Positions 36,350-49,727 of a stretch of 64,000 nucleotides of DNA are shown piece by piece. Position 1 is the stretch's first letter. Each line of letters opens with the position of its first letter. The stretch is from Halorutilales archaeon Cl-col2-1 (GTDB lineage: Archaea; Halobacteriota; Halobacteria; Halobacteriales; Afararchaeaceae). The stretch spans positions 1,728,001 through 1,792,000 of the forward strand of contig CP169074.1 of assembly GCA_041891055.1 (NCBI GenBank), written 5' to 3'. Made by a program: the position numbers and the translations under genes. The notes under the pieces are model-generated. The model had not been told where the DNA came from. It was given only the letters and a program-made list of their open reading frames with translations, and did not search any database.

Positions 36350-37159
36350 ATGCTGACTTCACGAGTGATTCCGTGTCTCGACGTCACAATAGAGGACGGA
36401 GAGCCGAATGTCGTCAAGGGCGAGCAGTTCGAGGAGCTGAGGTACGCGGGCGATCCCGTCGAGTTAGCGAAGAAATACAACCGACAGGGAGCCGACGAGC
36501 TAGTCTTCTTAGACATAACAGCGAGCTCCGAGGGACGTGACACTATGCTCGATGTCGTGAGAAGGACTGCGGACGAGGTCTTCATACCCCTCACGGTCGG
36601 CGGAGGCATCTCGTCGGTCGAGGACATAAAGGAGACACTCAGGGCGGGAGCCGACAAGACGAGCATGAACACGGGCGCGATAAAGAACCCCGACGTCGTC
36701 GACGAGGGTGCCGAGAAGTTCGGGTCACAGTGTATAGTCGTCGCGATAGACGCACGACGCAACACGAGCGACGAGGGTGAGTACTACTTCGAGGTCGACG
36801 GGGACGAGGTCTGGTTCGAAGCAGTAATATACGGCGGAAGTGAGCCCACCGGAATCGACGCCGTCTCTTGGGCACAGGAGGTTGAGGAACGAGGAGCGGG
36901 GGAGATACTCCTCACGAGCATGTACGGCGATGGAACCAAGGACGGCTATGACATACCTCTAACGAGAGCGGTGAGCCAGAACGTTTCTATACCTGTCATA
37001 GCGAGCGGCGGAGCCGGAGAACCCAAACACATGGTCGAGGCGTTTACCGACGGGAGCGCGGACGCCGCCCTCGCCGCCTCTATATTCCATTTCGACGAGT
37101 ACACGGTCGAAGAGGTGAAGGAGTACCTCGACGACTCGGGTATAAACGTCCGTCTGTAA
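36350..37159 (+). CDS. hisF: Imidazole glycerol phosphate synthase cyclase subunit
   Basis: Motifs [18 protein letters not shown] and IASGGAG. Confidence 0.95.
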
Positions 37160-37185
37160 TCGACAGGAAAGATATGTTCTTATGA

Positions 37186-37326
37186 CTACGCTCCTCTGCT
37201 AGCTTCGGTGTCCATGCCTCTACTCCTCTCACACTCGGGACAGGCGTAGACCTCGTCCTGGTTGTTTCCGAACACCCTGGAGTAGCTATCGCTGACGTAA
37301 GACCCGCATGTCTTGCACTCTGCCAT
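37186..37326 (-). CDS. Small CxxC...CPxC zinc-finger microprotein (46 aa)
   Basis: Below the ORF-track cutoff. Manual translation gives MAECKTCGSYVSDSYSRVFGNNQDEVYACPECERSRGMDTEASRGA. Confidence 0.8.
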   Translation of the reverse strand: MAECKTCGSYVSDSYSRVFGNNQDEVYACPECERSRGMDTEASRGA

Positions 37327-37388
37327 AGAAGATCCTTGTTCGAGATTTATCGCGTCGTTTTAAAAAGACTGTGGTTCTTAGCCACGGA

Positions 37389-37952
37389 TCAGTCTCTCCT
37401 GCGTACCTCATCTATCACGGATCGTATCTCGTCACGGAACTCTTCGAGACTAGACGTGTTCTCGACAGTGACCTCGGCGTTCTCGATAGCCTCGTCCATA
37501 CCGTAGCCTATCTCCCTCTCGTCTCTCTGTCTGAGATCGTCTGCTTCGGTGACGTCGTCCGAACGTCCCCTCTCACGTATACGTCCGAGACGCGTCTCGA
37601 AGGGTGCCTCGATAGCTACGAGGATGAAGTCATCTCCGAACTCGTCACGGAACCTCTCGGCTTCCGCCCATCCTCTCAAGCCGTCGACTAAGACGACTTG
37701 GATGTCACCGTCTTCGAGCTCTGACTCTATGAGGTCGACACATCTCTCGGCGACAGCGTCTTCTCCTTCTTCCTCCCTGAGACTCGTTGCGACCTGACCG
37801 AGACTCTCGTCGGTCTCGTCTGCGTCCCTCTTCTCGGCTTCTCGGCGTATGACATCTCCCATCGTCACGACGGGAATACCCATCTCTTCGGCTACCTCCG
37901 CTGCCTCACTCTTGCCGCTTCCCGGCATACCCACCGTACCTATGACACGCAT
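37389..37952 (-). CDS. UPF0200 family P-loop nucleotide kinase (dephospho-CoA kinase-like)
   Basis: MRVIGTVGMPGSGKS, VDGLR and RGRSDD. Start trimmed to ATG 37952. Confidence 0.8.
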   Translation of the reverse strand: MRVIGTVGMPGSGKSEAAEVAEEMGIPVVTMGDVIRREAEKRDADETDESLGQVATSLREEEGEDAVAERCVDLIESELEDGDIQVVLVDGLRGWAEAERFRDEFGDDFILVAIEAPFETRLGRIRERGRSDDVTEADDLRQRDEREIGYGMDEAIENAEVTVENTSSLEEFRDEIRSVIDEVRRRD

Positions 37953-38195
37953 ACTCGCGTCTATTCGCGCACCCCGTATCTGAGTACCGGTTCGCTCTGG
38001 CACAATCCGAAATCTTTTTACATAAGTGCTACTAAGAATGTAGTAGCACCGGTTGATTACCCCCCTTCCCCCACCATACATCAAACCGGTGTCACCCCTT
38101 ACCCCCCACCCCACCAGTACAGTACTCGTTTTCTATTTCCCCCTTATACGTAGTACAGGAGAATACCTGACTCCTTCAGGGTCAGGATGAATCCG

Positions 38196-38242
38196 TTCTC
38201 GAAGTTACCACTTCGAGGGCTGTTGAGCTTCGCTCAACAACG
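38196..38242. repeat. Double-hairpin element inside the IS left end
   Basis: CTCGAAG-TTACCA-CTTCGAG-GGC-TGTTGAGC-TTC-GCTCAACA, bounded by CG at both sides. Confidence 0.65.
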
Positions 38243-38347
38243 TTAAACTACTCACCAAATCATTCTAATAGACACAAACGGATATTCAACGAAGCTCATA
38301 TTCAAGTAAGATTTAATAATATACATATACAATAACTACGTGTAGTC

Positions 38348-39646
38348 ATGGAGACCAACCTAACGATAACAGCCGAGATACTAAATCACTCTCAAGTAGA
38401 GAGTGATTTAGACAGGCATGGTTGGTCTGCCTCGAAACTATGGAATATTGCCAGATACTACACTAGAGAAGTCTGGGAAAAGACAGGAGAGATCCCTGAG
38501 GAAGATACGTTGAAGACCGAGTTGAAAGAACACGAAAGATACGAGGACTTACACAGTCAGTCCAGTCAGAAAGTTCTAGAAGAGCTTTCTGAGGCGTACC
38601 AGTCTTGGTACGGCTCCGACGACGACAGGGATAATCCTCCTGGCTACCGCAAACGTTGGTACTACGACGGCTCAGGTAATCTAGTCCACGAAGAACATCC
38701 TAGGAGTACGGTCACATGGAAGAATCGTGGCATAAGACACGATTCTGACAATAACAGAGTACGTCTCTCTAAAGGCAAGAATCACAAACAAGTAGAAGAA
38801 CGTAGCGACTTCATCCTCATAGAGTACGACTTACACAGACCATACAACGAGATAGACGGAAGTATACAGCAGGTTCGTGCTGTATACGACGAAAAGGAAG
38901 AAAAGTGGGAGTTACACCTAGTCGTACAGAAAGAGATAGAAGTAGAAGACTCAGGAGAAGAGACTGTAGGGATCGATCTAGGTATCAGTAACTTCGCTGC
39001 GCTCTCGTTCGAGAACGGCGATACCGTTCTTTACCCCGGCAACGAACTCAGCCAGAACAACTACTACTTCGAGAAAGAGAAGGCTAAACTCGATAAGTCG
39101 GACGGTAGAGAACGTACTCGTCTAGATCATCTACAGTCAGAGAGACGTAGACACTTCCTCCATTCGTTGTCTAAGCATATCGTAGAGGAGTGTAAGAAGA
39201 GAGACGTTGGAAAGATCGCCGTAGGCGATCTTGAGGACATTCGTCAGGACGACGATGGAGAAGCCAGAAACTGGAGAGACTCAGGTAATTTAAACCTGCA
39301 CAAGTGGGCGTTCGACCGCTTTACCGGGATGCTAGAGTACAAGGCGAGGCTGAGTGGTATTGAGCTAGAGAGGATAGACGAAGAGAACACGTCGAAGACG
39401 TGTTGTGTCTGTGGTAAGCTCGATGGTGACCAGAGAGTCGAACGTGGTCTGTACGTCTGTGATGACTGTGATACGGTAGCTAACTCAGACGTTAACGGAG
39501 CTGAAAACATAAGACAGAAGTCTGAAGGTAACTCCGAGTCTTCTTGCTTTGATCAAGAAGATAGGAGTATCGGTTGTTTGGCACAACCTGGAGTCTACCT
39601 GTATGATCGGTCTTGCGGATTCGAACCGCAAGAAGCCGTTGGGTAG
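38348..39646 (+). CDS. tnpB: RNA-guided endonuclease TnpB
   Basis: RuvC-I GIDLG, zinc finger TSKTCCVCG...YVCDDC and RuvC-III DVNGAENI. Confidence 0.92.
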   Translation: METNLTITAEILNHSQVESDLDRHGWSASKLWNIARYYTREVWEKTGEIPEEDTLKTELKEHERYEDLHSQSSQKVLEELSEAYQSWYGSDDDRDNPPGYRKRWYYDGSGNLVHEEHPRSTVTWKNRGIRHDSDNNRVRLSKGKNHKQVEERSDFILIEYDLHRPYNEIDGSIQQVRAVYDEKEEKWELHLVVQKEIEVEDSGEETVGIDLGISNFAALSFENGDTVLYPGNELSQNNYYFEKEKAKLDKSDGRERTRLDHLQSERRRHFLHSLSKHIVEECKKRDVGKIAVGDLEDIRQDDDGEARNWRDSGNLNLHKWAFDRFTGMLEYKARLSGIELERIDEENTSKTCCVCGKLDGDQRVERGLYVCDDCDTVANSDVNGAENIRQKSEGNSESSCFDQEDRSIGCLAQPGVYLYDRSCGFEPQEAVG

Positions 39647-39683
39647 GCTTCAAACCTTAATATCCCAACTGGGATTCACCCCG

Positions 39684-39781
39684 TTCGTGAATCTTTGATT
39701 CACGAGCATGCTGAGGGAACCTCAGCATACGTCTCCAGATCTTTGATCTGGATGGCTAACGAATTCGAAGAATTCGTACCG
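39684..39781. repeat. Two tandem double-hairpin elements (48 + 50 bp) in the IS right end / omegaRNA region
   Basis: Four hairpins: CGTGAATC-TTT-GATTCACG, ATGCTGAG-GGAAC-CTCAGCAT, CCAGATC-TTT-GATCTGG and ACGAATTC-GAA-GAATTCGT. They split the terminal stem TCACC...CGCC/GGCGGGTGA. Confidence 0.8.
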
Positions 39782-39801
39782 CCTTCAGGCGGGTGAGGAT
39801 G

Positions 39802-41232
39802 TCAAGATATAAGAGATATGACTCTAACTCCGTCCTTAGATAGTAGACTGCTTATCTTAGAAGATGCTTTTACTACTCTGTCCGCGGACTCTTCAGCGAA
39901 TACGTCAGGATCACATGACTCTATCAGAGATGGTAGTTTTTCGACGCCGGTTACTCTCTGACCTCCCGTGAGGTTCGAGACTCCGTCGTTGAGTATCACA
40001 ACGAGGATGTCCTCATCTCTCTCAGACGCCTCCAAGAGACCCTGTATACCCGAGTGAATGAATGCGGTGTCTCCGACGAAAGCTACGGCATCCTCGGGAT
40101 GTCCGGACGCGAGGCTTATCGCAGATCCGAGCGCCGAAGCACCGTCGGCGAACTCGAACGGAGGACGTCCCGTGAGTGCTACCGAGCCTATGTCGACCGC
40201 GACGAAGACGTCCAGAAGATCATCGACGACACCCTTGTAGATCTCGTAGAAAGGATTCGACTCAGGTAGGGGACGTCCGCTTTTCTCTATATCTGGGCTG
40301 ACGGGTGAGGGGTCGGTGAAAGCAGTCTCGATACCTCTCTCCACGGCTTCCTCGGTCAGTCTTCCGTACCGCGGCAGGTGTCCAGTCTCCTTACCCACCA
40401 CGTTTTGGGTGTCGAGGAAATTTTCTATCAGAGGATCACCGTCTTCCACTACGAGGACTCTGTCGTGTCTCCCGACGAAACGTTCCGCCTCGGACGGTAC
40501 TGGATACGAGTATCCGAGCGAGAGATGTGAGACGTCGTCGGGAACCACCTCCGAGGCGTCGCCACACGACAGTACGCCGAGGTCAGTACCCCCGTCTCTC
40601 AGACTGTGTAGATCCGAACTGTCGACGTACCTCCGTATCTCGGGACGTATCTCTTCCTCGAAGACCTTTCTGCGTCTGACTACGGGACCTTTCCACGCCC
40701 TCTGTCTGTCGAACTCGCCCGTTTCTTCTATTCTGTCGAATCTCAGTCTCTCGACTGCAGTCTCAGATTCGAGAAGACGCGAGGTCACGCGTACTATACA
40801 CGGCACACCTACGTCTTCTGAGAGTCTCAGACCCTCCTCGACTGACTCGAGTAATCCGTCTACTCCTGAGGGAGTCAGAACCGGAACCCGCGCCTTGAAA
40901 CCTAACGAGCGTGAGTCTCCCTCGTCCTGTGACTTGACAGCTCCGGGATCGTCGCCCGCGATGACTAAGACACCGCCGCCCGTCCCGAAGGTGGCTGAGC
41001 TCGCGAGGGGGTCGAGTGCGACGTTGACACCCACGTGTTTGGCTATGAGACAGCCCCTCTCGCCAGCGAACGACCTTCCTATGGCTTTCTCTACCCCCAC
41101 CATCTCGTTTGGAACCACGTCGGAATCGGTCTCCTCGACCAGATCCGTGACAGGATATCCCACGACTCCCGCCGTGTATACGTCGTTTTTCTTGAGACAA
41201 CGCGCGACCGCTTCAGCGCCGCTTATCCTCAT
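39802..41232 (-). CDS. IorA-like ThDP-dependent enzyme lacking Fe-S cysteines (putative 2-oxoacid decarboxylase)
   Basis: IorA N-terminal motifs (GYP, NEMVGVE, KHVGVNVALDPL, GDDPG..SQ.E.DSR) and ThDP motif GDTAFIHSG...ILND. No ferredoxin domain. Confidence 0.8.
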   Translation of the reverse strand: MRISGAEAVARCLKKNDVYTAGVVGYPVTDLVEETDSDVVPNEMVGVEKAIGRSFAGERGCLIAKHVGVNVALDPLASSATFGTGGGVLVIAGDDPGAVKSQDEGDSRSLGFKARVPVLTPSGVDGLLESVEEGLRLSEDVGVPCIVRVTSRLLESETAVERLRFDRIEETGEFDRQRAWKGPVVRRRKVFEEEIRPEIRRYVDSSDLHSLRDGGTDLGVLSCGDASEVVPDDVSHLSLGYSYPVPSEAERFVGRHDRVLVVEDGDPLIENFLDTQNVVGKETGHLPRYGRLTEEAVERGIETAFTDPSPVSPDIEKSGRPLPESNPFYEIYKGVVDDLLDVFVAVDIGSVALTGRPPFEFADGASALGSAISLASGHPEDAVAFVGDTAFIHSGIQGLLEASERDEDILVVILNDGVSNLTGGQRVTGVEKLPSLIESCDPDVFAEESADRVVKASSKISSLLSKDGVRVISLIS

Positions 41233-42191
41233 ATGTACGGACTGTCCTTCGTGAGTTCGTCTATCACTGCTTCGACTACTTCCTCAGTCGATGACTCTCC
41301 TCCTAAGTCGGGCGTCGGCGCGCGTCTGACCCCCTCATAGGTTGCTTCTTCGAGCCTCCTACTCCTCTTCTCGAAGCCGAGGTAATCGAGCATCATAGAT
41401 GCGCTCAGAAGACAGCCCGCGGGATTGGCTACTCCTTCGCCGGCTATGTCGGGGGCACTCCCGTGGACGGGCTCGAACATCCCGAAGTCGTCGCCTATGT
41501 TCGCGCTCGGTGCTACTCCTAACCCGTCTCCGAGTCCGGCTGTGAGGTCGCTGAGTATGTCTCCGTACAGATTCGGCGTGAGTAAGACGTCGAACTCCTC
41601 ACCATCTGCGAGGTCGTGGGCTACGGAGTCGACGAGCCTTTCGTCGTACTCGACGTACGAATCCTCGATGACTTCTCTGCTCACGTCTCTGAAGAGACGG
41701 TCCGAACCCACGACGTTGGCTTTGTGGACTACGGTGACTTCTGACTCCGCCTCTTCGACGGCTTTTACCGCCGTCTTCCGTGTCGCCTCCGTTGTCACTG
41801 AACGGACTGTCTCACACGCGCCTTCCTTTGATATCTCCTCCCCTGAGTAAAGACCCTCAGTGTTTTCCCTGACTACTGTCCCAGTCCGCGAGGGGCGTAC
41901 GTTGGCATAGAGTCCTAGCTCGTTTCTCAGACGGAGGACGGTGCTCTCGTACTTCGGGTCGTCGGGACTCTCGACGGCTCCGAGAAGAAGGGCATCACAG
42001 TCACGTATACGTTCGAGCGTCTCCTCGGTCACGCCTGTGTCGACCTCCTCTGACTCCCAGACAGACCTCCCGACATCGAGGCTCACGGTCTCGATACCCA
42101 CGTCGAGACATCTCAGAGACTCGACCGTAGCAGGCACGACCTCTCTGCCTACTCCGTCTCCCTCAGCCACTCCTAAAGTGATATCAGCCAT
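41229..42191 (-). CDS. aksF: Isocitrate/isopropylmalate dehydrogenase family, AksF-like homoisocitrate dehydrogenase
   Basis: Motifs GDGVGREV, RENTEGLY, HKANV, NLYGDILSD and EPVHGSAPDIAG. Specificity inferred from context. Confidence 0.75.
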   Translation of the reverse strand: MADITLGVAEGDGVGREVVPATVESLRCLDVGIETVSLDVGRSVWESEEVDTGVTEETLERIRDCDALLLGAVESPDDPKYESTVLRLRNELGLYANVRPSRTGTVVRENTEGLYSGEEISKEGACETVRSVTTEATRKTAVKAVEEAESEVTVVHKANVVGSDRLFRDVSREVIEDSYVEYDERLVDSVAHDLADGEEFDVLLTPNLYGDILSDLTAGLGDGLGVAPSANIGDDFGMFEPVHGSAPDIAGEGVANPAGCLLSASMMLDYLGFEKRSRRLEEATYEGVRRAPTPDLGGESSTEEVVEAVIDELTKDSPYI

Positions 42192-42669
42192 TCTTTCTCC
42201 TCCAGCTTAGCAAGCCACCCGCTTCGAGAACCTCACGAAGCCTCTCGGGAAGCTCCTCACACTCGTGCCTCGTCTTCCCGGGCTCCGACTCCACTACCAC
42301 GGTGCCTTCTGACAGATCCAGTGAGACGCGGTCACCGTCGTCGGTGTCTTCGGCGACAGATGCTGTTGCTATCGGGAGACCAACGTTGATCGCGTTTCGG
42401 TAGAATATACGTGCGAACGACTCGGCGACTACCCCTCTGATCCCGGCTGCCTTTATCGCCCTCGGTGCCTGTTCACGTGACGATCCGTACCCGAAGTTCT
42501 CACCCGCTACTATAACGACTCCCTCGCTGTCGTCCGCAAACCGGGGATCTACGCCCTCCATTACGTGGTCAGCCCACACGTCCTCGTCACGCCGGAGGTA
42601 CTTTCCGGGTATTATCTCGTCGGTGCTGATGTCGTCTCCGAATGTCCTCGCTTCTCCTTTGACCCTCAT
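42184..42669 (-). CDS. aksE: Homoaconitase small subunit (LeuD/AksE family)
   Basis: Motifs FGDDISTDEIIPGKYLR, GENFGYGSSRE and SFARIFYRN. The YLR loop is homoaconitase-like. Start at ATG 42669. Confidence 0.8.
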   Translation of the reverse strand: MRVKGEARTFGDDISTDEIIPGKYLRRDEDVWADHVMEGVDPRFADDSEGVVIVAGENFGYGSSREQAPRAIKAAGIRGVVAESFARIFYRNAINVGLPIATASVAEDTDDGDRVSLDLSEGTVVVESEPGKTRHECEELPERLREVLEAGGLLSWRRKNG

Positions 42670-43913
42670 ACTACCTCCGCTGGGTTGGTTATCTCCCCTT
42701 CTACTGCACTCGCAGCGACGGTCTCGGGCGACCCGAGATACACGTCTCCCGATCCCATTCTCCCGTCGAAGTTCCTGTTGCCCGACGAGATACAGACCTC
42801 CCCGTCTCCGACGACTCCCTGGTGGTATCCCATACACGGACCACATCCGGGGTTGAGTATAGTCGCGCCGGCTTCCATAAGCACGTTCGAGATGCCCTCC
42901 TCGTTGGCTCTCATCAGGGCTTCCTTCGTGGCGGGAACTAATATCAGACGCGTCTCGGGTGCTACCTCGCTGCCTTCGAGGATTTCAGCCGCGGCGGCTA
43001 GGTCGGAGAAGCCCCCGTTCGTACAAGTTCCTATATGTGCCTGATCCACAGCCGTACCTTCGACTTCGTCGACTGGAACGGCGTCCTCGGGAGCACCCGG
43101 ACGTGCTACGAGGGGTGACTCGGGAGCCTGTATACGTATCTCCTCGTCCCAAGACCCCGGGTCGGAGTAGACGGGGTTCGCGTCCTCCTTTCCGGTGTAC
43201 TCGAAGGTAGTCTCATCGGGTGGTATCACCGCCGACTTCGCGTCCATTTCGACACCCATGTTACACAGGGTTATCCTCTCCTCTACGCTGAGATCCTCTA
43301 TACAGTCGCCGTGGTACTCTATCACGCTGTAGTTAGCACCGCTCGCCCCCAGCTCCGAGACGATCTTGAGAGTCAGATCCTTGGGTGTAATACGGCTCCG
43401 GCTCGGGTCGAATTCCTCAATCTCTACCTTAATTGTCTCTGGGACACGGAACCACAGCTTTCCCGAGATGAGTGCCTCGGCGATATCAGTGCTTCCCACA
43501 CCCGTCGAGAATGCTCCGAGTGCACCGAAGCTACACGTGTGTGAGTCGCCCCCGACTACAATATCTCCGGGGTTTATGTAGTCTTTCTCGGGAAGTACCC
43601 TGTGACATATCCCCTCACCCTCGTGTCTGTCGATGCCATTCTCGGTGGTCCAGTCCCTTATCTCAGACTGCTGTTCGGCGACGTCCTCGTCGGGTGCCGG
43701 GAAGTAGTGGTCGAAGGGAACAACCACCTTGTCGGAGTCCCACGGCTCTTCATCCATCTCCTTCATAGCCTCGACGGCTAGGACGCTCGAACCGTCGTGA
43801 GCCATCACGAGGTCGAGATCAGCCTCAACAACGTCTCCTGCTCGCGCTTCCTCACCCGACGCGTCCGAGAGCACCTTCTCCGCCATCGTCGTAGGCTCTG
43901 TCGCCCGCGTCAT
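42666..43913 (-). CDS. aksD: Homoaconitase large subunit (LeuC/AksD family)
   Basis: Motifs GDSHTC, IGTCTNG, PGCGPCMG and NRNFDGRMG. Confidence 0.8.
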   Translation of the reverse strand: MTRATEPTTMAEKVLSDASGEEARAGDVVEADLDLVMAHDGSSVLAVEAMKEMDEEPWDSDKVVVPFDHYFPAPDEDVAEQQSEIRDWTTENGIDRHEGEGICHRVLPEKDYINPGDIVVGGDSHTCSFGALGAFSTGVGSTDIAEALISGKLWFRVPETIKVEIEEFDPSRSRITPKDLTLKIVSELGASGANYSVIEYHGDCIEDLSVEERITLCNMGVEMDAKSAVIPPDETTFEYTGKEDANPVYSDPGSWDEEIRIQAPESPLVARPGAPEDAVPVDEVEGTAVDQAHIGTCTNGGFSDLAAAAEILEGSEVAPETRLILVPATKEALMRANEEGISNVLMEAGATILNPGCGPCMGYHQGVVGDGEVCISSGNRNFDGRMGSGDVYLGSPETVAASAVEGEITNPAEVV

Positions 43914-45052
43914 CTTCCTCTCACCTCCTCGACCAGCTCGGATATGCTGACTGTGTCTCTTCCCGACTTGAGACTCTCGACTACCTCCTCAATCTCGTCC
44001 TCGATCTCTATACCCTCTCTCTCGGCGATGAACTCTACTGCCTTTCTACCTGAATGTTTCCCGATCTCGAACTCCCTCTCTCGTCCGACTTTCTCGGGAG
44101 GGTATACCTCGTAAGTCCCGGGATCGTTGGCTATCCCCTCGACGTGGACACCGCTCTCGTATCTGAAGGCGTTTTTCCCGACTACCGGCTTCGTAGGGCT
44201 GACCTCTATTCCCGATCTCTCTTCGACGACTTCCGAGAGACGGCTCAGTTTCTCAGTCTCTACCACCTCGAACGAGTACTGTGTCGAGAGGACGACTGCG
44301 ACCTCTTCTAGGGGAGTGTTGCCCGCGTTCTCACCTATGCCGTTCACAGTCGTGTGTAGCTGTACTGCGCCCTCCTCGGCTGCGGCAACTGTGTTCGCGA
44401 CTGAAAGACCCAGGTCGTCGTGGCAGTGTACCGAGACGGGTACCTCGACCCAGTCTCTGACCTTAGTCACCATCGTTCGTGTCGTCGGTGGGGTTAGAGC
44501 ACCCACAGTGTCGGCTATACCTACCATGTCGGCTCCTCTCTCCTCGGCACCCGTGTAGAGACGTCTGAGGAAGCCGGGGTCGGATCGTGTAGAGTCCTCG
44601 ATGGCGAAACGCACCTCTATCCCATGATCAGACGCGTACTCGACCGTCCTGAACGCCTTCTCAGCCGCCTCTTGCCTCGTTATACCGTACTTCTGACTCA
44701 GATGGCGGTCGCTCCCGGCTATGAATACACCTACTGCGTCGGCTCCCGTCTCGATTACGGAGTCTATGTCGTCTTCCATACACCGCGCGAGACACGAGAT
44801 CTTAGCGTCTGTTCCGAGACTCACGACCTCCTCGACGGCTCTTCTCTCGTCGTCGCTTACAGCCGGAAATCCCGCCTCTATGTATCCTACTCCTGCTTCG
44901 TCAAGCAGACGCGCTATCTCCTTCTTGTCCTCGACCGAGAACGAGACTCCGGGTGTCTGTTCTCCGTCTCTTAACGTGACATCGTATATATGAAGATCAT
45001 CAGTTAGTTGGGGTCTGTCGACGAAGTTCGAGAAGCTGTTGGCTTGGGTCAT
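43910..45052 (-). CDS. aksA: Homocitrate synthase family (AksA-like), no C-terminal regulatory domain
   Basis: Motifs DVTLRDGEQTPG, HCHDDLG, NGIGE.AGN and GKHSG. About 380 aa. Start at ATG 45052. Confidence 0.8.
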   Translation of the reverse strand: MTQANSFSNFVDRPQLTDDLHIYDVTLRDGEQTPGVSFSVEDKKEIARLLDEAGVGYIEAGFPAVSDDERRAVEEVVSLGTDAKISCLARCMEDDIDSVIETGADAVGVFIAGSDRHLSQKYGITRQEAAEKAFRTVEYASDHGIEVRFAIEDSTRSDPGFLRRLYTGAEERGADMVGIADTVGALTPPTTRTMVTKVRDWVEVPVSVHCHDDLGLSVANTVAAAEEGAVQLHTTVNGIGENAGNTPLEEVAVVLSTQYSFEVVETEKLSRLSEVVEERSGIEVSPTKPVVGKNAFRYESGVHVEGIANDPGTYEVYPPEKVGREREFEIGKHSGRKAVEFIAEREGIEIEDEIEEVVESLKSGRDTVSISELVEEVRGR

Positions 45053-45071: not shown

Positions 45072-45752
45072 TTACTCTCCGAATACCTCTGTCGTGAGGC
45101 TCTTTCTGACGGATTTGGCGGCTTCCTCGGGTGTGACTCTCTCCTCTGAGACACCGATATCAGGTATCTTTCCGACGACGTCAATGCCTGTCATCATCTC
45201 AATTTCGTCGGGGTTTGTCCTCTCGGCTGTGTCGGGATTCTCAGGATATCTGTTGATAACTATTCCCGAGACATCGAGGCTTCTTCTCTCGACTGCCTCG
45301 ACGGTGAGCGCTGTGTGGTTGAGGGTTCCGAGGCTCGGGCGCGTGACAATGAGAACGGGGACTCCGAGGTCTTCTATCAGGTCTATTACCTCCTTACCGT
45401 CGTCGAGAGGCACTCTCACACCTCCGATACCCTCTACGACGGTGAAGCCGTCCTCGGATAACCTCGATACGACGTGTTCGAGTACACTGTCGTAGCCCAG
45501 GTCACACCCCTCTATCTCCGCCGCGACTCTCGGAGCCAAGGGCTCTTCGAGTACCGACGCGCAGACTTCGTCTACGGGGTCGCCTGACGCCGCACTAAGA
45601 AACTCGGCGTCGTCACTCCCGCCTGACTCGACGGGCTTTACTGCGTTCACGTCGAATCCCTTGTCTTTCAGGTATCTTACTATTCCTCCCGCGACTACTG
45701 TCTTACCCACTCCTGTGTCGGTTCCGGCTACGAATATCCCGTTCGTGTTCAT
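45072..45752 (-). CDS. bioD: Dethiobiotin synthase
   Basis: Motifs GTDTGVGKT, KPVESG, VEGIGG and LGTLNHT. Confidence 0.93.
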   Translation of the reverse strand: MNTNGIFVAGTDTGVGKTVVAGGIVRYLKDKGFDVNAVKPVESGGSDDAEFLSAASGDPVDEVCASVLEEPLAPRVAAEIEGCDLGYDSVLEHVVSRLSEDGFTVVEGIGGVRVPLDDGKEVIDLIEDLGVPVLIVTRPSLGTLNHTALTVEAVERRSLDVSGIVINRYPENPDTAERTNPDEIEMMTGIDVVGKIPDIGVSEERVTPEEAAKSVRKSLTTEVFGE

Positions 45753-46960
45753 ATCACTCCCACCTCTTTGCCTGCCTCCTCGAACGCGTCCACGACTTTT
45801 CGGATTTCGTCATCTGTATGGGTCGCCATCGCGCTCACACGTATCCTACTCGTACCTTCGGGGACTGTCGGAGGACGTACTGCGGGAGCGAAGATGCCTC
45901 TCTCCTCGAGCTTATCCCCTAGACTTACTGCGTCTTCGGCGTCGCCTACGAGAACCGGGATTATCTGTGACTCACGGCTGAGTATCTCATATCCGAGGTC
46001 GCTCAGACTCTCTCTCAAGAACTCGACGTTCGACCATAGATCTTCTCTCAGATTCTCTCCCTCACCACTCCTTACGAGATTTACTGCCTCGCGTGAGACC
46101 TCGGCGTCTATCGGGCTCAGACCCGTGCTGAAGACGAACGACCTCGCCTCGTTCACGAGGAGGTCGATAAGCTCTGAGGATCCAGCGACAAAGCCGCCCT
46201 GGCTTCCGAGGGCTTTGCTCATCGTACCCATCTGAATATCTATGTCGTCCACAAGCCCCTCGCGTCTGACTACTCCAGAACCTTCCTCGCCTACTACACC
46301 TGTGGCATGCGCCTCGTCGACCATTACGAAGCCACCGTCGTCGCGCGCTATCTCCGATATTTCCTTGAGGGGAGCTATGTCGCCGTCCATCGAGAATACC
46401 GAGTCGGTCACAATCAGCTTACGTCTTCCGTCGTGTTTCTTCCATTTTTCACGGAGGTCGTCGGGATCGCAATGGTCGTACACAACGGTTTTGGCGTCTG
46501 AGAGGCGGCATCCGTCTATTATGCTCGCGTGGTTGAGTTCGTCGCTGAATATAACGTCCCTCTCGTCTGCAGATCCCTGATCTCCAGGCTCGGAAATCAA
46601 AGATTTCCGAACGTCGGTGACTGCGGTGATCGTTCCGACGTTCGCGGCATATCCCGACGAAAAAACCAGAGCGTCTTGTGTTCTCTTGTACTCGGCAATC
46701 TCGTCCTCGAGACGCCGGTGTGGCTCCAGATTGCCCGATAGTAGACGCGACGCTCCTGCCCCAGTGCCGTACTTATCGCTCGCTCTGCACGCCGCCTCCT
46801 TCAGACGTCTATGGCTTCCGAGCCCGAGGTACGAGTTGGAGGAGAGAACCAAGGTTCTGTCATCCTCGCCGTCGACCGTCGCTGTCTTTCCAAAGCCGCC
46901 GAGTTCCCTCATCGACCTGTAGAGTCCCCGGCGTTTCCTGACCTCAACCTCCTCGAACAT
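45749..46960 (-). CDS. bioF: 8-amino-7-oxononanoate synthase
   Basis: Motifs SNSYLGL, SDELNHASIIDG, SVFSMDGD, DEAH and PLP lysine TMSKALG. Carries a 16-aa insert. Confidence 0.93.
   Translation of the reverse strand: MFEEVEVRKRRGLYRSMRELGGFGKTATVDGEDDRTLVLSSNSYLGLGSHRRLKEAACRASDKYGTGAGASRLLSGNLEPHRRLEDEIAEYKRTQDALVFSSGYAANVGTITAVTDVRKSLISEPGDQGSADERDVIFSDELNHASIIDGCRLSDAKTVVYDHCDPDDLREKWKKHDGRRKLIVTDSVFSMDGDIAPLKEISEIARDDGGFVMVDEAHATGVVGEEGSGVVRREGLVDDIDIQMGTMSKALGSQGGFVAGSSELIDLLVNEARSFVFSTGLSPIDAEVSREAVNLVRSGEGENLREDLWSNVEFLRESLSDLGYEILSRESQIIPVLVGDAEDAVSLGDKLEERGIFAPAVRPPTVPEGTSRIRVSAMATHTDDEIRKVVDAFEEAGKEVGVI
46564..46611 (-). repeat. 48-bp double-hairpin element inserted in frame in bioF
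   Basis: Minus strand TTCGGAAATC-TTT-GATTTCCG-AGC-CTGGAGATC-AGG-GATCTGCAG-ACG with GACG duplicated. 35/48 identical to the metG copy. Confidence 0.85.
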
Positions 46961-46963
46961 CTA

Positions 46964-47962
46964 CTAGAATCCGGGCATTATCTCGCTCGGATCGAAGAGG
47001 CCGTAGAGTCCGTTTTGGTTGAGGAAGACCCCTTTCTTGAGGTATCCGAGCGCGGGACCGTTGACGTTCGCTGCCATGCTCGTGTTGTCGTCTAGCTTGA
47101 ATGTGTTGGTGCCCTCGTCGCCCTCGAAGGTCGTACCCGTCACACGTACGGTCGTCGTCGTGGGTTTCTCGTCCTGTGTGACGTCGAGTATTCCTCCTAC
47201 CTTGACGTCGGCGGAGTCACATATTCCCGCCTTTTCGAGGAGTACCTCGTCGGCGTGTTCCATGTCCTCGAACTCAAGACGTCCGTCGTGTTCCTCTATT
47301 ATCTCCTCTATCTCGTCGTCGGACATCTCGGAGACCTTTTCGAGGTCGTACTCCGGGAGATGTGCGATGTCCTCTCTCACGGTTCCCTTGTTCTCCTCGT
47401 ATCCGCTCGCTATGCCTACTCCCCACCATATCTCTATCTCGTCGACCTCTACGAAGCTCTGTGAAGCGATTGCGGCGGCTCCCGTGAGGAAGCCGGGCGT
47501 CGCACCTGCGCCACAGATGAAGGTAATTCCCGATGCCTCTATCTTCGACTCCATATCTTCGAGCATGCCGATCACACGCGACCTCTTGAGGACGTCAATC
47601 ATGACTCCCGAGTAGCCCGCGTCTGCGAATCTGTCGACGGTATCGGGTATGAACGAATGGGGGATGTTGGGAAGAGCCATCAGGACGGCGTCTATACGGT
47701 CGCTGACCTCGATGACCTCCTGTATCGAGTCGTTCGCGGGAGTCCCACCGGGAGCCTTCGCGACTGTTCCTCCGTCGGCTTCGACCGCATCGACGATGTC
47801 GTCGACTTCGAGACCGTCGAAGTCTATTGCCACACCTTCTTTGTCACACACCGCGACCGGATTGAGGTCGTCCTTGTACTCCGAGACTTCGAGTGTTCGT
47901 TTGCCTATTCCACCTGTACCAAGTACGGCTATGTTCTTTGTATCTGCGTCTGTTTCAGACAT
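46964..47962 (-). CDS. bioU: BioU (NAD(P)H-dependent suicide enzyme replacing BioA)
   Basis: Rossmann motif VLGTGGIG, MALPNIP, DVLKR (conserved Lys), GAGATPGFLTG and DMEHAD. Located in a bio operon with no bioA. Confidence 0.85.
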   Translation of the reverse strand: MSETDADTKNIAVLGTGGIGKRTLEVSEYKDDLNPVAVCDKEGVAIDFDGLEVDDIVDAVEADGGTVAKAPGGTPANDSIQEVIEVSDRIDAVLMALPNIPHSFIPDTVDRFADAGYSGVMIDVLKRSRVIGMLEDMESKIEASGITFICGAGATPGFLTGAAAIASQSFVEVDEIEIWWGVGIASGYEENKGTVREDIAHLPEYDLEKVSEMSDDEIEEIIEEHDGRLEFEDMEHADEVLLEKAGICDSADVKVGGILDVTQDEKPTTTTVRVTGTTFEGDEGTNTFKLDDNTSMAANVNGPALGYLKKGVFLNQNGLYGLFDPSEIMPGF

Positions 47963-48725
47963 ATTTATCGAGTTCTTTGGGTTTTATACTGTAGAAATCC
48001 GACACTCCGTCAACCAGAAACGGCGTAGTCTCAAGACTGTCTATATAGCTGTTCAGATCCGTGTCGGGAGAGACGAAGTAGACGCGTCCTCCCGAAGAGC
48101 CGTCAGGCTTCATCCTCGGAAAACGGAAGTAAGTCGCGTCCACAGCTACGTATCCGGGCTTATAGCCGGGGTTGTCCGACCAGCAGATTTCCCCGACTGT
48201 TCCCTCGACCCACTGTGTCTTCGTAGACAGAACGACTGCGTCCTTGACACGTGTTCCGCCGAGACCCGCGTCGTGTATACACTCTTCGAGTCCCTCCTCG
48301 CCTTCATCTGTCGTGCCGACGTAAGAGGTTCTCACTCCTCGACTCTCGTCGGGTTCGAGCCTCTCGCCAGTCTCGGAGTCGACGACTGCAGCACCTCTCA
48401 TCGCCGTCTCGGAGCGGAGTATCTCGAACCCTCTTTCGGTAGCCTCCTTAGAGATGTGTTCCTGAAGTATACTCCTCGCTGTCGCGTGACTCTCTTTGAG
48501 GCTCGATGTCTCGACCGTGACGACATCGACTGTGTCGCTTCTCTCGGGCTTTTGTTCGATCTCTTCTATTGAGATCTCTACGGAGTCGGGCGTCTCTCTC
48601 GGGTGGTTCATCGCTCTCGCCGTCATAGACGAGACTGTGTCGTCTATCTCGTCGTCGACGACTATGTCCTCCGCGCCCGAGACGTGTTCGTCGTTCAGAG
48701 AAGCCCTCATCCGTACGCTGTACAT
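47955..48725 (-). CDS. bioW: 6-carboxyhexanoate (pimelate)--CoA ligase
   Basis: Motifs MYSVRMRAS, HVSGAE, RAMNHPR, MRGAA, RGVRTS, WSDNPGY..GYVA and GGRVYF. Confidence 0.92.
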   Translation of the reverse strand: MYSVRMRASLNDEHVSGAEDIVVDDEIDDTVSSMTARAMNHPRETPDSVEISIEEIEQKPERSDTVDVVTVETSSLKESHATARSILQEHISKEATERGFEILRSETAMRGAAVVDSETGERLEPDESRGVRTSYVGTTDEGEEGLEECIHDAGLGGTRVKDAVVLSTKTQWVEGTVGEICWSDNPGYKPGYVAVDATYFRFPRMKPDGSSGGRVYFVSPDTDLNSYIDSLETTPFLVDGVSDFYSIKPKELDKYV

Positions 48726-48728
48726 ACT

Positions 48729-49727
48729 CTATTCGAGGTCTTCGACGCGTCTTCCCGCGTTCTGGATCATCTCTATGTCTTCCTGAGCGTTCTGTCCCTC
48801 AGTCGTGAGGTAGTCGCCTATTAGGAGACCGTTGGCTCCCGATTCGAGTATCTCGGGCTGTCTGTCCTTGAGGTTCTCCTCGCGCCCTCCGGTGATCCGT
48901 ATCACCTTCTCGGGCATCATGAACCGGTAGATGGAGACCGACCGGAGTATCTCGTCGACGGTGATCTTCGAGTACGACTCGAACGGCGTTCCGGGTACGG
49001 GATTGAGTATGTTGACAGGTATCGAGTCGACATCGAGCCTCCTAAGCTCGGAAGCCGCCTCTATCCTGTGCTCCATCTCCTCACCCATTCCGAATATCAC
49101 TCCGACACACGTCTTGAGACCGACCTCCTGTGCGATCTGAATAGTCCTGACCCTGTCGTCGTAGTCGTGTGTGGATATGACCTCGTCGAAGTACGACGGC
49201 GCGGTCTCTATGTTGTGGTTGTAATGCTGAAGACCCGCCTCTGCGAGATCCTCCGCCTCCTCGCGCGTGAGAACTCCGAGGGAGCCGTCGGGTTCTACGT
49301 CTGTCTCGTCCCTGATGAGACGTATCGACTCTAAGACCTTCTCGAACTCGTCGGGGCGTTTCTGCTTGTCGATTCCGCGCTCGGCGACCACGATACCAAA
49401 CCTGTTCGAGCCGTCTTCCTCTGCCCTCTTCGCGGCTTCGAGTATCTCCTCGGGGTCGAGGTAGTCGTACTCGTCGACGCCCGTGTCGTAATGGTTCGAC
49501 TGGGCACAGAAGCCACAGTCCTCGGCACATCCGCCGCTCTTGGCGTTGATGATAGAGCACGTATCGACGCCGTCGCCCATATTCGACTCACGTATCTCGT
49601 CGGCGGCGTCAACGAGGGGTTCGAGGGGAGCGTCGGCGAGACGGAGAGCCTCTTCCTCCGAGACTCCCTCACCCCTCAGAGCCTTCGTCTTCAGATGACC
49701 TATCTCCTCAGCTAACTCGTTAACCAT
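48729..49727 (-). CDS. bioB: Biotin synthase
   Basis: Radical SAM motif CAEDCGFCAQS, plus YNHNIET and GANGLLIGDYLTT. Confidence 0.95.
   Translation of the reverse strand: MVNELAEEIGHLKTKALRGEGVSEEEALRLADAPLEPLVDAADEIRESNMGDGVDTCSIINAKSGGCAEDCGFCAQSNHYDTGVDEYDYLDPEEILEAAKRAEEDGSNRFGIVVAERGIDKQKRPDEFEKVLESIRLIRDETDVEPDGSLGVLTREEAEDLAEAGLQHYNHNIETAPSYFDEVISTHDYDDRVRTIQIAQEVGLKTCVGVIFGMGEEMEHRIEAASELRRLDVDSIPVNILNPVPGTPFESYSKITVDEILRSVSIYRFMMPEKVIRITGGREENLKDRQPEILESGANGLLIGDYLTTEGQNAQEDIEMIQNAGRRVEDLE

Follow-up and report, generated by a model that had tools for sequence, protein, structure and literature searches.

IorA (TIGR03336) is the alpha subunit of indolepyruvate:ferredoxin oxidoreductase, within the 2-oxoacid:ferredoxin oxidoreductase (OFOR) superfamily. 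In biotin synthesis, the known routes to the pimelate moiety are BioC/BioH, BioI, BioZ, BioE and BioW salvage, and BioU is a replacement for BioA. To our knowledge, no methanogen or anaerobic methane oxidiser can do without coenzyme B. Section 14.5 of a 2011 inventory describes 2-oxoacid elongation as running from 2-oxoglutarate to 2-oxosuberate, and lists coding sequences only for the synthase, the isomerase and the dehydrogenase (PMC3087415). We analysed a 64,000-nucleotide stretch (hereafter the window; contig CP169074.1, positions 1,728,001 to 1,792,000) of the haloarchaeal genome of Halorutilales archaeon Cl-col2-1, which is 2.06 Mb in size and 99.5% complete. The gene under study (39802..41232, minus strand) encodes an IorA-like protein of 476 aa without iron-sulfur (Fe-S) ligands. 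An earlier reading of this DNA, made from its letters alone (the original prediction), had proposed it as a 2-oxosuberate decarboxylase and had held that this enzyme of coenzyme B synthesis is unassigned; in agreement, we found no gene assignment for it in the searchable literature.

The IorA-like gene is the last of ten densely packed genes that form one operon on the minus strand (49727 to 39802) in the order bioB-bioW-bioU-bioF-bioD-aksA-hacA-hacB-aksF-iorA-like. Neighbouring genes, all on one strand, overlap by 4–8 nt or are otherwise separated by no more than 19 nt. The IorA-like gene begins in an ATGA overlap with the stop codon of the aksF-like gene. A full 2-oxoacid elongation set and a C7-consuming biotin set including BioW are in this way encoded together. 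Only a C8 2-oxodiacid that loses one carbon yields the C7 diacid used by BioW. The IorA-like protein is probably a thiamine diphosphate (ThDP)-dependent, non-oxidative 2-oxosuberate decarboxylase giving 7-oxoheptanoate, from which an SSADH-like enzyme would form pimelate. In the proposed pathway, the AksA-, HacAB- and AksF-like enzymes would lengthen 2-oxoglutarate to 2-oxosuberate, a gain of three carbons, and a stand-alone ThDP/Mg-dependent decarboxylase built on the IorA scaffold would release C1 as CO2 to leave 7-oxoheptanoate (pimelate semialdehyde). An aldehyde dehydrogenase unlinked to the operon, for which the single SSADH-like enzyme of the genome is the candidate, would oxidise this to pimelate; BioW would convert pimelate to pimeloyl-coenzyme A (CoA), and BioF, BioU, BioD and BioB would then complete biotin. 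The decarboxylation step suits a ThDP enzyme that has neither an electron-transfer cofactor nor a CoA-binding subunit, and, since the operon includes BioW, the implied intermediate is free pimelate and not pimeloyl-CoA. The methanogen relatives of the protein would carry out the same decarboxylation on the way to coenzyme B. What the enzyme acts on, what it releases, the oxidation of the aldehyde and the role of the relatives are all inferred.

The open reading frame (ORF) has an ATG start and an intact frame, and was characterised by family search, alignments and a predicted structure. Its best NCBIfam match was IOR_alpha (TIGR03336), with 202.9 bits against a cut-off of 650.9 over profile positions 51–472 of 595. 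The only Pfam match was TPP_enzyme_C (E 7.8e-9), with no match to TPP_enzyme_N or TPP_enzyme_M even at E ≤ 10. A profile search returned remote matches to OFOR alpha and beta proteins; when the protein alone was run with phmmer against PDB sequences, the only matches were to biotin carboxylase fragments, at chance level. Judged by its sequence, the ORF encodes a divergent IorA homolog with the domain order Pyr (E43), middle and PP (G387-D388 ... N415-D416, T422-G-G-Q425).

Two alignments, with 22 homologs and with 20 homologs from methanogens and anaerobic methanotrophic archaea (ANME), placed P323-E-S-N326 of the window protein at the CxxC of its relatives and D-I-G-S350 at their DxGC. The protein ends in ...VISLIS, two residues short of the column of the fourth (C-terminal) Cys; in the alignment the canonical 2x[4Fe-4S] tail of IorA is missing, and the Pfam search gave no Fer4 match. 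The original prediction, which had read PESN for CPGC, DIGS for DIGC and no C-terminal Cys or ferredoxin domain, is thus confirmed by alignment with homologs. The five Cys that are present (12, 61, 145, 223 and 440) are scattered and form no cluster motif. ThDP features are retained at E43, K65, D106, R108, R148, G387-D388, H393 and T422-G-G-Q425, in columns conserved in 186–193 of 194 proteins. The ThDP motif had been described as intact; this holds for E43, GD, TGGQ and the other residues named, but the Mg-ligand column, Asn in 183 of 194 proteins, is Asp416 in the window protein (N415-D416). Asp occurs at this column in nine other proteins, all nine of them Cys-less, and in no Cys-bearing protein; the change appears to be tolerated and is perhaps coupled to the loss of the Cys. 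An AlphaFold2 model from a 34-row alignment had a mean local confidence (pLDDT) of 85.7 and a predicted template modelling score (pTM) of 0.84, with pLDDT below 50 solely in 314–320 and 351–357, both beside former Cys positions.

No iorB is adjacent to the IorA-like gene, as had been noted originally, and the whole-genome searches extend this: PF01558 and PF01855 had no match in the 99.5%-complete genome at E ≤ 0.01, and tblastn with bona fide IorB found nothing in it. A hidden IorB or other classical OFOR partner was rejected on these empty searches; the IorA-like protein itself has no flavin domain, and no CoA-binding IorB/gamma domain was found in the genome. Since PF01855 and PF01558 are unmatched, the haloarchaeon appears to be without the classical pyruvate and 2-oxoglutarate:ferredoxin oxidoreductases, both of which are present in the control genome of Haloferax volcanii. 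The window also holds no aldehyde dehydrogenase, as originally stated, and the sole broad aldehyde dehydrogenase of the genome is the SSADH-like enzyme encoded outside it (C1:1481663-1483030, minus strand).

The nearest relatives of the window protein are short IorA-like proteins of methanogens and ANME. In two collection scans, each with at least 600 matches, the best 80 loci of each were mostly canonical bacterial IorA, and the informative ones were L054-L063 and L148-L149. Synteny was compared in 20 methanogen/ANME genomes with six GTDB family codes, over a stretch of 20 kb centred on the gene's surroundings in each. The 20 relatives are 482–547 aa long and 33–40% identical to the window protein; none has a ferredoxin domain, an IorB match was found at none of the 20 loci, and all 20 keep the four Cys (CxxC, DxGC and C-terminal). 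The aksA gene lay within the 20 kb at ten of the 20 loci and was the adjacent gene at six, with hacA/hacB/aksF beside it. At 12 of the 20, the short IorA-like gene stood directly 3' of a co-oriented gene for methanogenesis marker protein 11 (TIGR03280 matches of 323–359 bits); three loci showed both linkages and one showed neither. Among the matches listed, the same arrangements occurred on two metagenome contigs and in records that carry the names Methanoperedens, ANME-2 and Methanosarcinaceae. Databases name the short proteins only “thiamine pyrophosphate-dependent enzyme” or “IorA”, and this short, ferredoxin-less IorA-like clade of methanogens and ANME is a new observation here. Homologs in methanogens had been predicted, and the nearest clade is indeed this family linked to aksA/hacA/hacB/aksF and marker protein 11; Cys-less homologs in methanogens were to be looked for, but every one of the 20 relatives retains the Cys.

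Because all 20 relatives are without the ferredoxin domain and IorB yet carry four Cys, the loss of that domain and of the partner is older than the loss of the Cys. The latter is a lineage-specific step that followed the architectural change; plausibly it adapted the enzyme to an oxygen-exposed life, with which a genome without classical OFOR is in line. The original prediction had the loss of the Cys turn an oxidoreductase into a decarboxylase. Descent from IorA and loss of the ligands stand, whereas the causal role given to the Cys does not, as the loss of the partner predates theirs.

Several features of the methanogen/ANME neighbourhoods were recorded. In one example, marker protein 11 (L034:9105-9995) is followed by the short IorA-like gene (L034:9992-11440), and such pairs often overlap. 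Marker protein 11 (TIGR03280) shows a weak likeness to the N-terminal part of TiaS; the sole TIGR03280 match in the window genome (56 bits, a 433-aa frame) was taken for TiaS. Its linkage to the short IorA-like gene is a hint of a role for marker protein 11 in making coenzyme B. An XcbA-family protein (NF052538, 79 bits, below cut-off) lies beside aksF in aks clusters adjoining the short IorA-like gene (L035:3893-4729 and counterparts, seven of the 20 loci). Canonical-type IorA occurs near leu-like genes at L191 and L201. A Thermodesulfobacteriota metagenome-assembled genome locus with IorA, IorB and a BioF-like gene (L097:8654-13238) was dropped as canonical IorAB. There, the IorA-IorB pair is followed by an alpha-oxoamine synthase of the BioF/serine-palmitoyltransferase type and a PAP2 protein, a cluster that may supply acyl-CoA for a lipid-like product.

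A HMMER scan of 1.84 billion representatives returned nothing more than 41% identical to the window protein except its own cluster representative, P0001 (99%). The family tree was built with FastTree from 194 rows, among them 12 of the 20 proteins from methanogens; P0001, as a 99% twin of the window protein, and 13 proteins of at least 700 aa were left out. It placed the window protein in a 50-row clade (local support 99) that includes all 12 methanogen short IorA-like proteins and in which the window protein alone lacks the Cys. The four-Cys set was complete in 155 of the 194 other family proteins tallied. A further 26 Cys-less IorA-like proteins of approximately 490–555 aa all lie outside the methanogen clade, from which it follows that the cluster was lost more than once. 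These comprise P0057, P0069, P0071, P0072, P0075, P0079, P0119, P0134, P0159 and 17 others; most have Ser at the DxGC position, and nine have the Asn-to-Asp change at the metal-ligand column. In a 401-genome sample of the phylum, a paralog of approximately 480–550 aa was found in nearly all methanogen/ANME families (e.g. 52/52, 24/24, 15/15 and 12/12 genomes). No ortholog of the IorA-like gene was found in the haloarchaeal families of that sample or among 39 other genomes of the same order.

The elongation enzymes of the operon also have methanogen kin. In a tree, the window AksA-like protein and the AksA proteins of methanogens are sisters (Shimodaira–Hasegawa-like approximate likelihood ratio test, SH-aLRT, 93), apart from haloarchaeal LeuA/CimA paralogs. 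It shares 46–53% identity with methanogen AksA, against no more than 46% with the proteins of 149 other Halobacteriales genomes; across 150 such genomes, an ortholog was found only in a sister species (G001). The AksA-like homocitrate/isopropylmalate-type synthase (43910..45052, minus strand, as are all operon genes) was assigned by family search and tree; its ORF is open to 45184, with the likely ATG at 45052. The HacA-like large subunit of a homoaconitase/isopropylmalate isomerase (42666..43913) matched hacA_fam above the cut-off with 485 bits, and the HacB-like small subunit (42184..42669) likewise matched LEUD_arch with 185 bits; the latter ORF has its likely start at M60, at 42669, immediately after the hacA stop. 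The AksF-like homoisocitrate/isopropylmalate-type dehydrogenase (41229..42191) scored below the cut-off with both AksF2_Meth (268 bits) and LEU3_arch (302 bits).

The biotin half of the operon begins with BioB, biotin synthase (48729..49727; TIGR00433, 383 bits, above cut-off), followed by BioW, 6-carboxyhexanoate (pimelate)-CoA ligase (47955..48725; PRK01322, 241 bits, above cut-off; Pfam BioW E 3.5e-70). A BioU-like protein is encoded at 46964..47962 (NF047886 BioU, 342 bits, below the cut-off of 600). The BioF-type alpha-oxoamine synthase (45749..46960; Aminotran_1_2, E 8e-59) and BioD of the dethiobiotin synthetase family (45072..45752; AAA_26, E 2.2e-41) were named from their operon positions. 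Beyond the IorA-like gene, on the plus strand, lies an IS200/IS605-family TnpB element with a hairpin-rich 3' tail (38348..39801; TnpB gene 38348-39646), which has no part in the pathway; G + C content is low (0.465) over 38001–40000, the region of this element.

The IorA-like gene could be a functionless, decaying remnant carried along in the operon. Four near-invariant Cys and the last residues have been lost, the insertion sequence (IS) element abuts the stop codon, the branch is long and a single Pfam domain was detected. The sister species offers a direct comparison. Its ortholog is 96% identical, with the same Cys substitutions and the same C-terminal end (...SLIS), although that genome has no element at this site and a TAA stop codon in place of the TGA of the window. 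Since the protein ends at the same residue without the IS, the short C-terminus is no insertion artefact, and truncation by the IS was ruled out. Between the two species, the gene differs by 21.5 non-synonymous and 38.5 synonymous changes, a non-synonymous to synonymous ratio (pN/pS) of 0.19, like that of five neighbouring genes (0.09–0.35); these values cover six gene pairs, the aksA pair having been left out as out of frame at a contig end (nucleotide identity 0.28). Both species have an intact frame; the residues for catalysis and those of the ThDP site are retained, the start shows translational coupling and the fold prediction is confident. The gene is thus under purifying selection and not decaying, and a decaying pseudogene, which the original prediction had named as a possible refutation, was ruled out by pN/pS and residue conservation; that the gene is a remnant is very improbable. 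In the same comparison (sister-species locus L005, window 36350–43913), pS was 0.06–0.11 for hacA, hacB, aksF and the IorA-like gene and higher, 0.21–0.24, in the flanking hisF and kinase-like gene. The lower pS inside the cluster could reflect a recent exchange of the cluster between the window species and the sister species.

A functional enzyme might still run a different reaction. Oxidative decarboxylation straight to pimelate or pimeloyl-CoA, through an external acceptor or an unrecognised partner, would need no aldehyde dehydrogenase. The ancestors of the protein are oxidoreductases, the methanogen relatives retain the proximal-cluster Cys, and White's labelling work of 1989 reportedly derived methanogen pimelate from 2-oxosuberate through oxidative decarboxylation. 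The window protein, however, has no Fe-S ligands, ferredoxin domain or flavin domain, the genome search found no CoA-binding IorB/gamma domain and BioW implies free pimelate instead of pimeloyl-CoA, and we consider this route quite unlikely. Unlikely, too, is that the protein acts on a different pathway substrate, such as 2-oxopimelate or 2-oxoadipate, or performs a ThDP carboligation, with an indirect link to pimelate. Sequence does not tell which chain length the Aks-like enzymes or the IorA-like protein prefer, the aks-like genes score below equivalog cut-offs, and ThDP enzymes are often broad or shifted in specificity. On the other side, BioW and BioF of the operon require a C7 diacid, and shorter 2-oxodiacids would give C5/C6 products useless to the other eight genes.

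Several points weigh against a non-oxidative 2-oxosuberate decarboxylase. The functional assignment of the IorA-like protein is drawn from its context, and a shared neighbourhood alone is no proof of a non-oxidative reaction. As the methanogen relatives keep the full ligand set, the ancestral enzyme may do redox chemistry. ThDP binding by the window protein is only assumed, because the Mg-ligand Asn is Asp. Its branch is long (1.38) and its exact sister unreliable, possibly a long-branch join. The aksA- and aksF-like NCBIfam scores below equivalog cut-offs leave chain-length specificity unfixed. The SSADH-like dehydrogenase is unlinked to the operon and scores 603 against an SSADH family cut-off of 730. 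Finally, the distribution survey was confined to one phylum, with class I methanogens (Methanobacteriota) outside it.

Taken as a whole, the original prediction is partly supported. A protein derived from IorA, the loss of ligands, ferredoxin domain and IorB, a bio operon containing an elongation set and BioW, and synteny in methanogens all speak for it; what failed is the loss of the Cys as the cause of the change. More tentatively, a wider proposal, possible but somewhat doubtful, has three parts. The whole short IorA-like family would be the missing enzyme that decarboxylates 2-oxosuberate for coenzyme B in methanogens and in archaea that oxidise methane or alkanes; marker protein 11 would take part in an adjacent step; and the haloarchaeal operon would be the same module, recruited and freed of Fe-S, supplying biotin with its pimelate by a gene-encoded route not recognised before. 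In the searchable literature, which leaves subscription journals and supplements outside, we found no paper that names a 2-oxosuberate decarboxylase or describes this way of making pimelate, and none that connects coenzyme B or pimelate with IorA-like proteins or with marker protein 11.

Two gaps, the decarboxylation step of coenzyme B synthesis and the source of archaeal biotin pimelate, would become directly testable with one small soluble protein. Having no iron-sulfur ligands, the haloarchaeal version should tolerate oxygen and be simpler to assay than the methanogen proteins. If the proposal is true, no OFOR-superfamily enzyme before this one would have been shown to function without any Fe-S cluster, and the case would show that an oxidoreductase scaffold can be pared down to a plain decarboxylase. 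For engineered pathways to C6/C7 monomers it would also supply a natural decarboxylase of medium-chain 2-oxodiacids; one such pathway is reportedly the subject of a paper (PMC4666358). As far as the relevant parts of two recent biotin-synthesis papers go, only fatty-acid- or lysine-derived routes are listed, and the archaeal source of pimelate is not covered by them (PMC13336041, PMC11089781).

Compared with IorA, its best-scoring curated family, the window protein has the same Pyr-middle-PP order, conserved Glu, GD...N-type motif and TGGQ. Unlike IorA, it scores far below the cut-off, is without the four Cys, the 2x[4Fe-4S] tail and a genomic IorB, and is found in a context of biotin synthesis and 2-oxoacid elongation, not of aromatic amino-acid metabolism. 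Decarboxylases of the PDC/ALS type (pyruvate and indolepyruvate decarboxylases, and the sulfopyruvate decarboxylase ComDE) would share the proposed chemistry, and Foldseek ranks this type first because one chain carries the Pyr, middle and PP domains. The TM-scores are approximately 0.3 with 10–16% identity, however, and the sequence kinship of the window protein is with the OFOR family; a decarboxylase here would be one that has arisen independently from an oxidoreductase scaffold.

With the short methanogen/ANME IorA-like proteins, for which no published function was found in the searchable literature, the window protein shares clade, length class, architecture and the aksA/hacA/hacB/aksF neighbourhood. 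The relatives differ in keeping the four Cys (20/20) and in lying behind marker protein 11 at 12 of the 20 loci, and their hosts make coenzyme B, whereas the window comes from a haloarchaeon that has a bio operon and no marker protein 11. The four genes directly upstream are homologs of the AksA/AksD/AksE/AksF coenzyme B elongation pathway; in the window, by contrast, this module and bioBWUFD make up a single fused operon, and its end product is presumably pimelate instead of 7-mercaptoheptanoate. As in the known pimelate routes of biotin synthesis, a C7 diacid reaches BioF, here through BioW, but none of those routes proceeds by 2-oxoacid elongation and decarboxylation.

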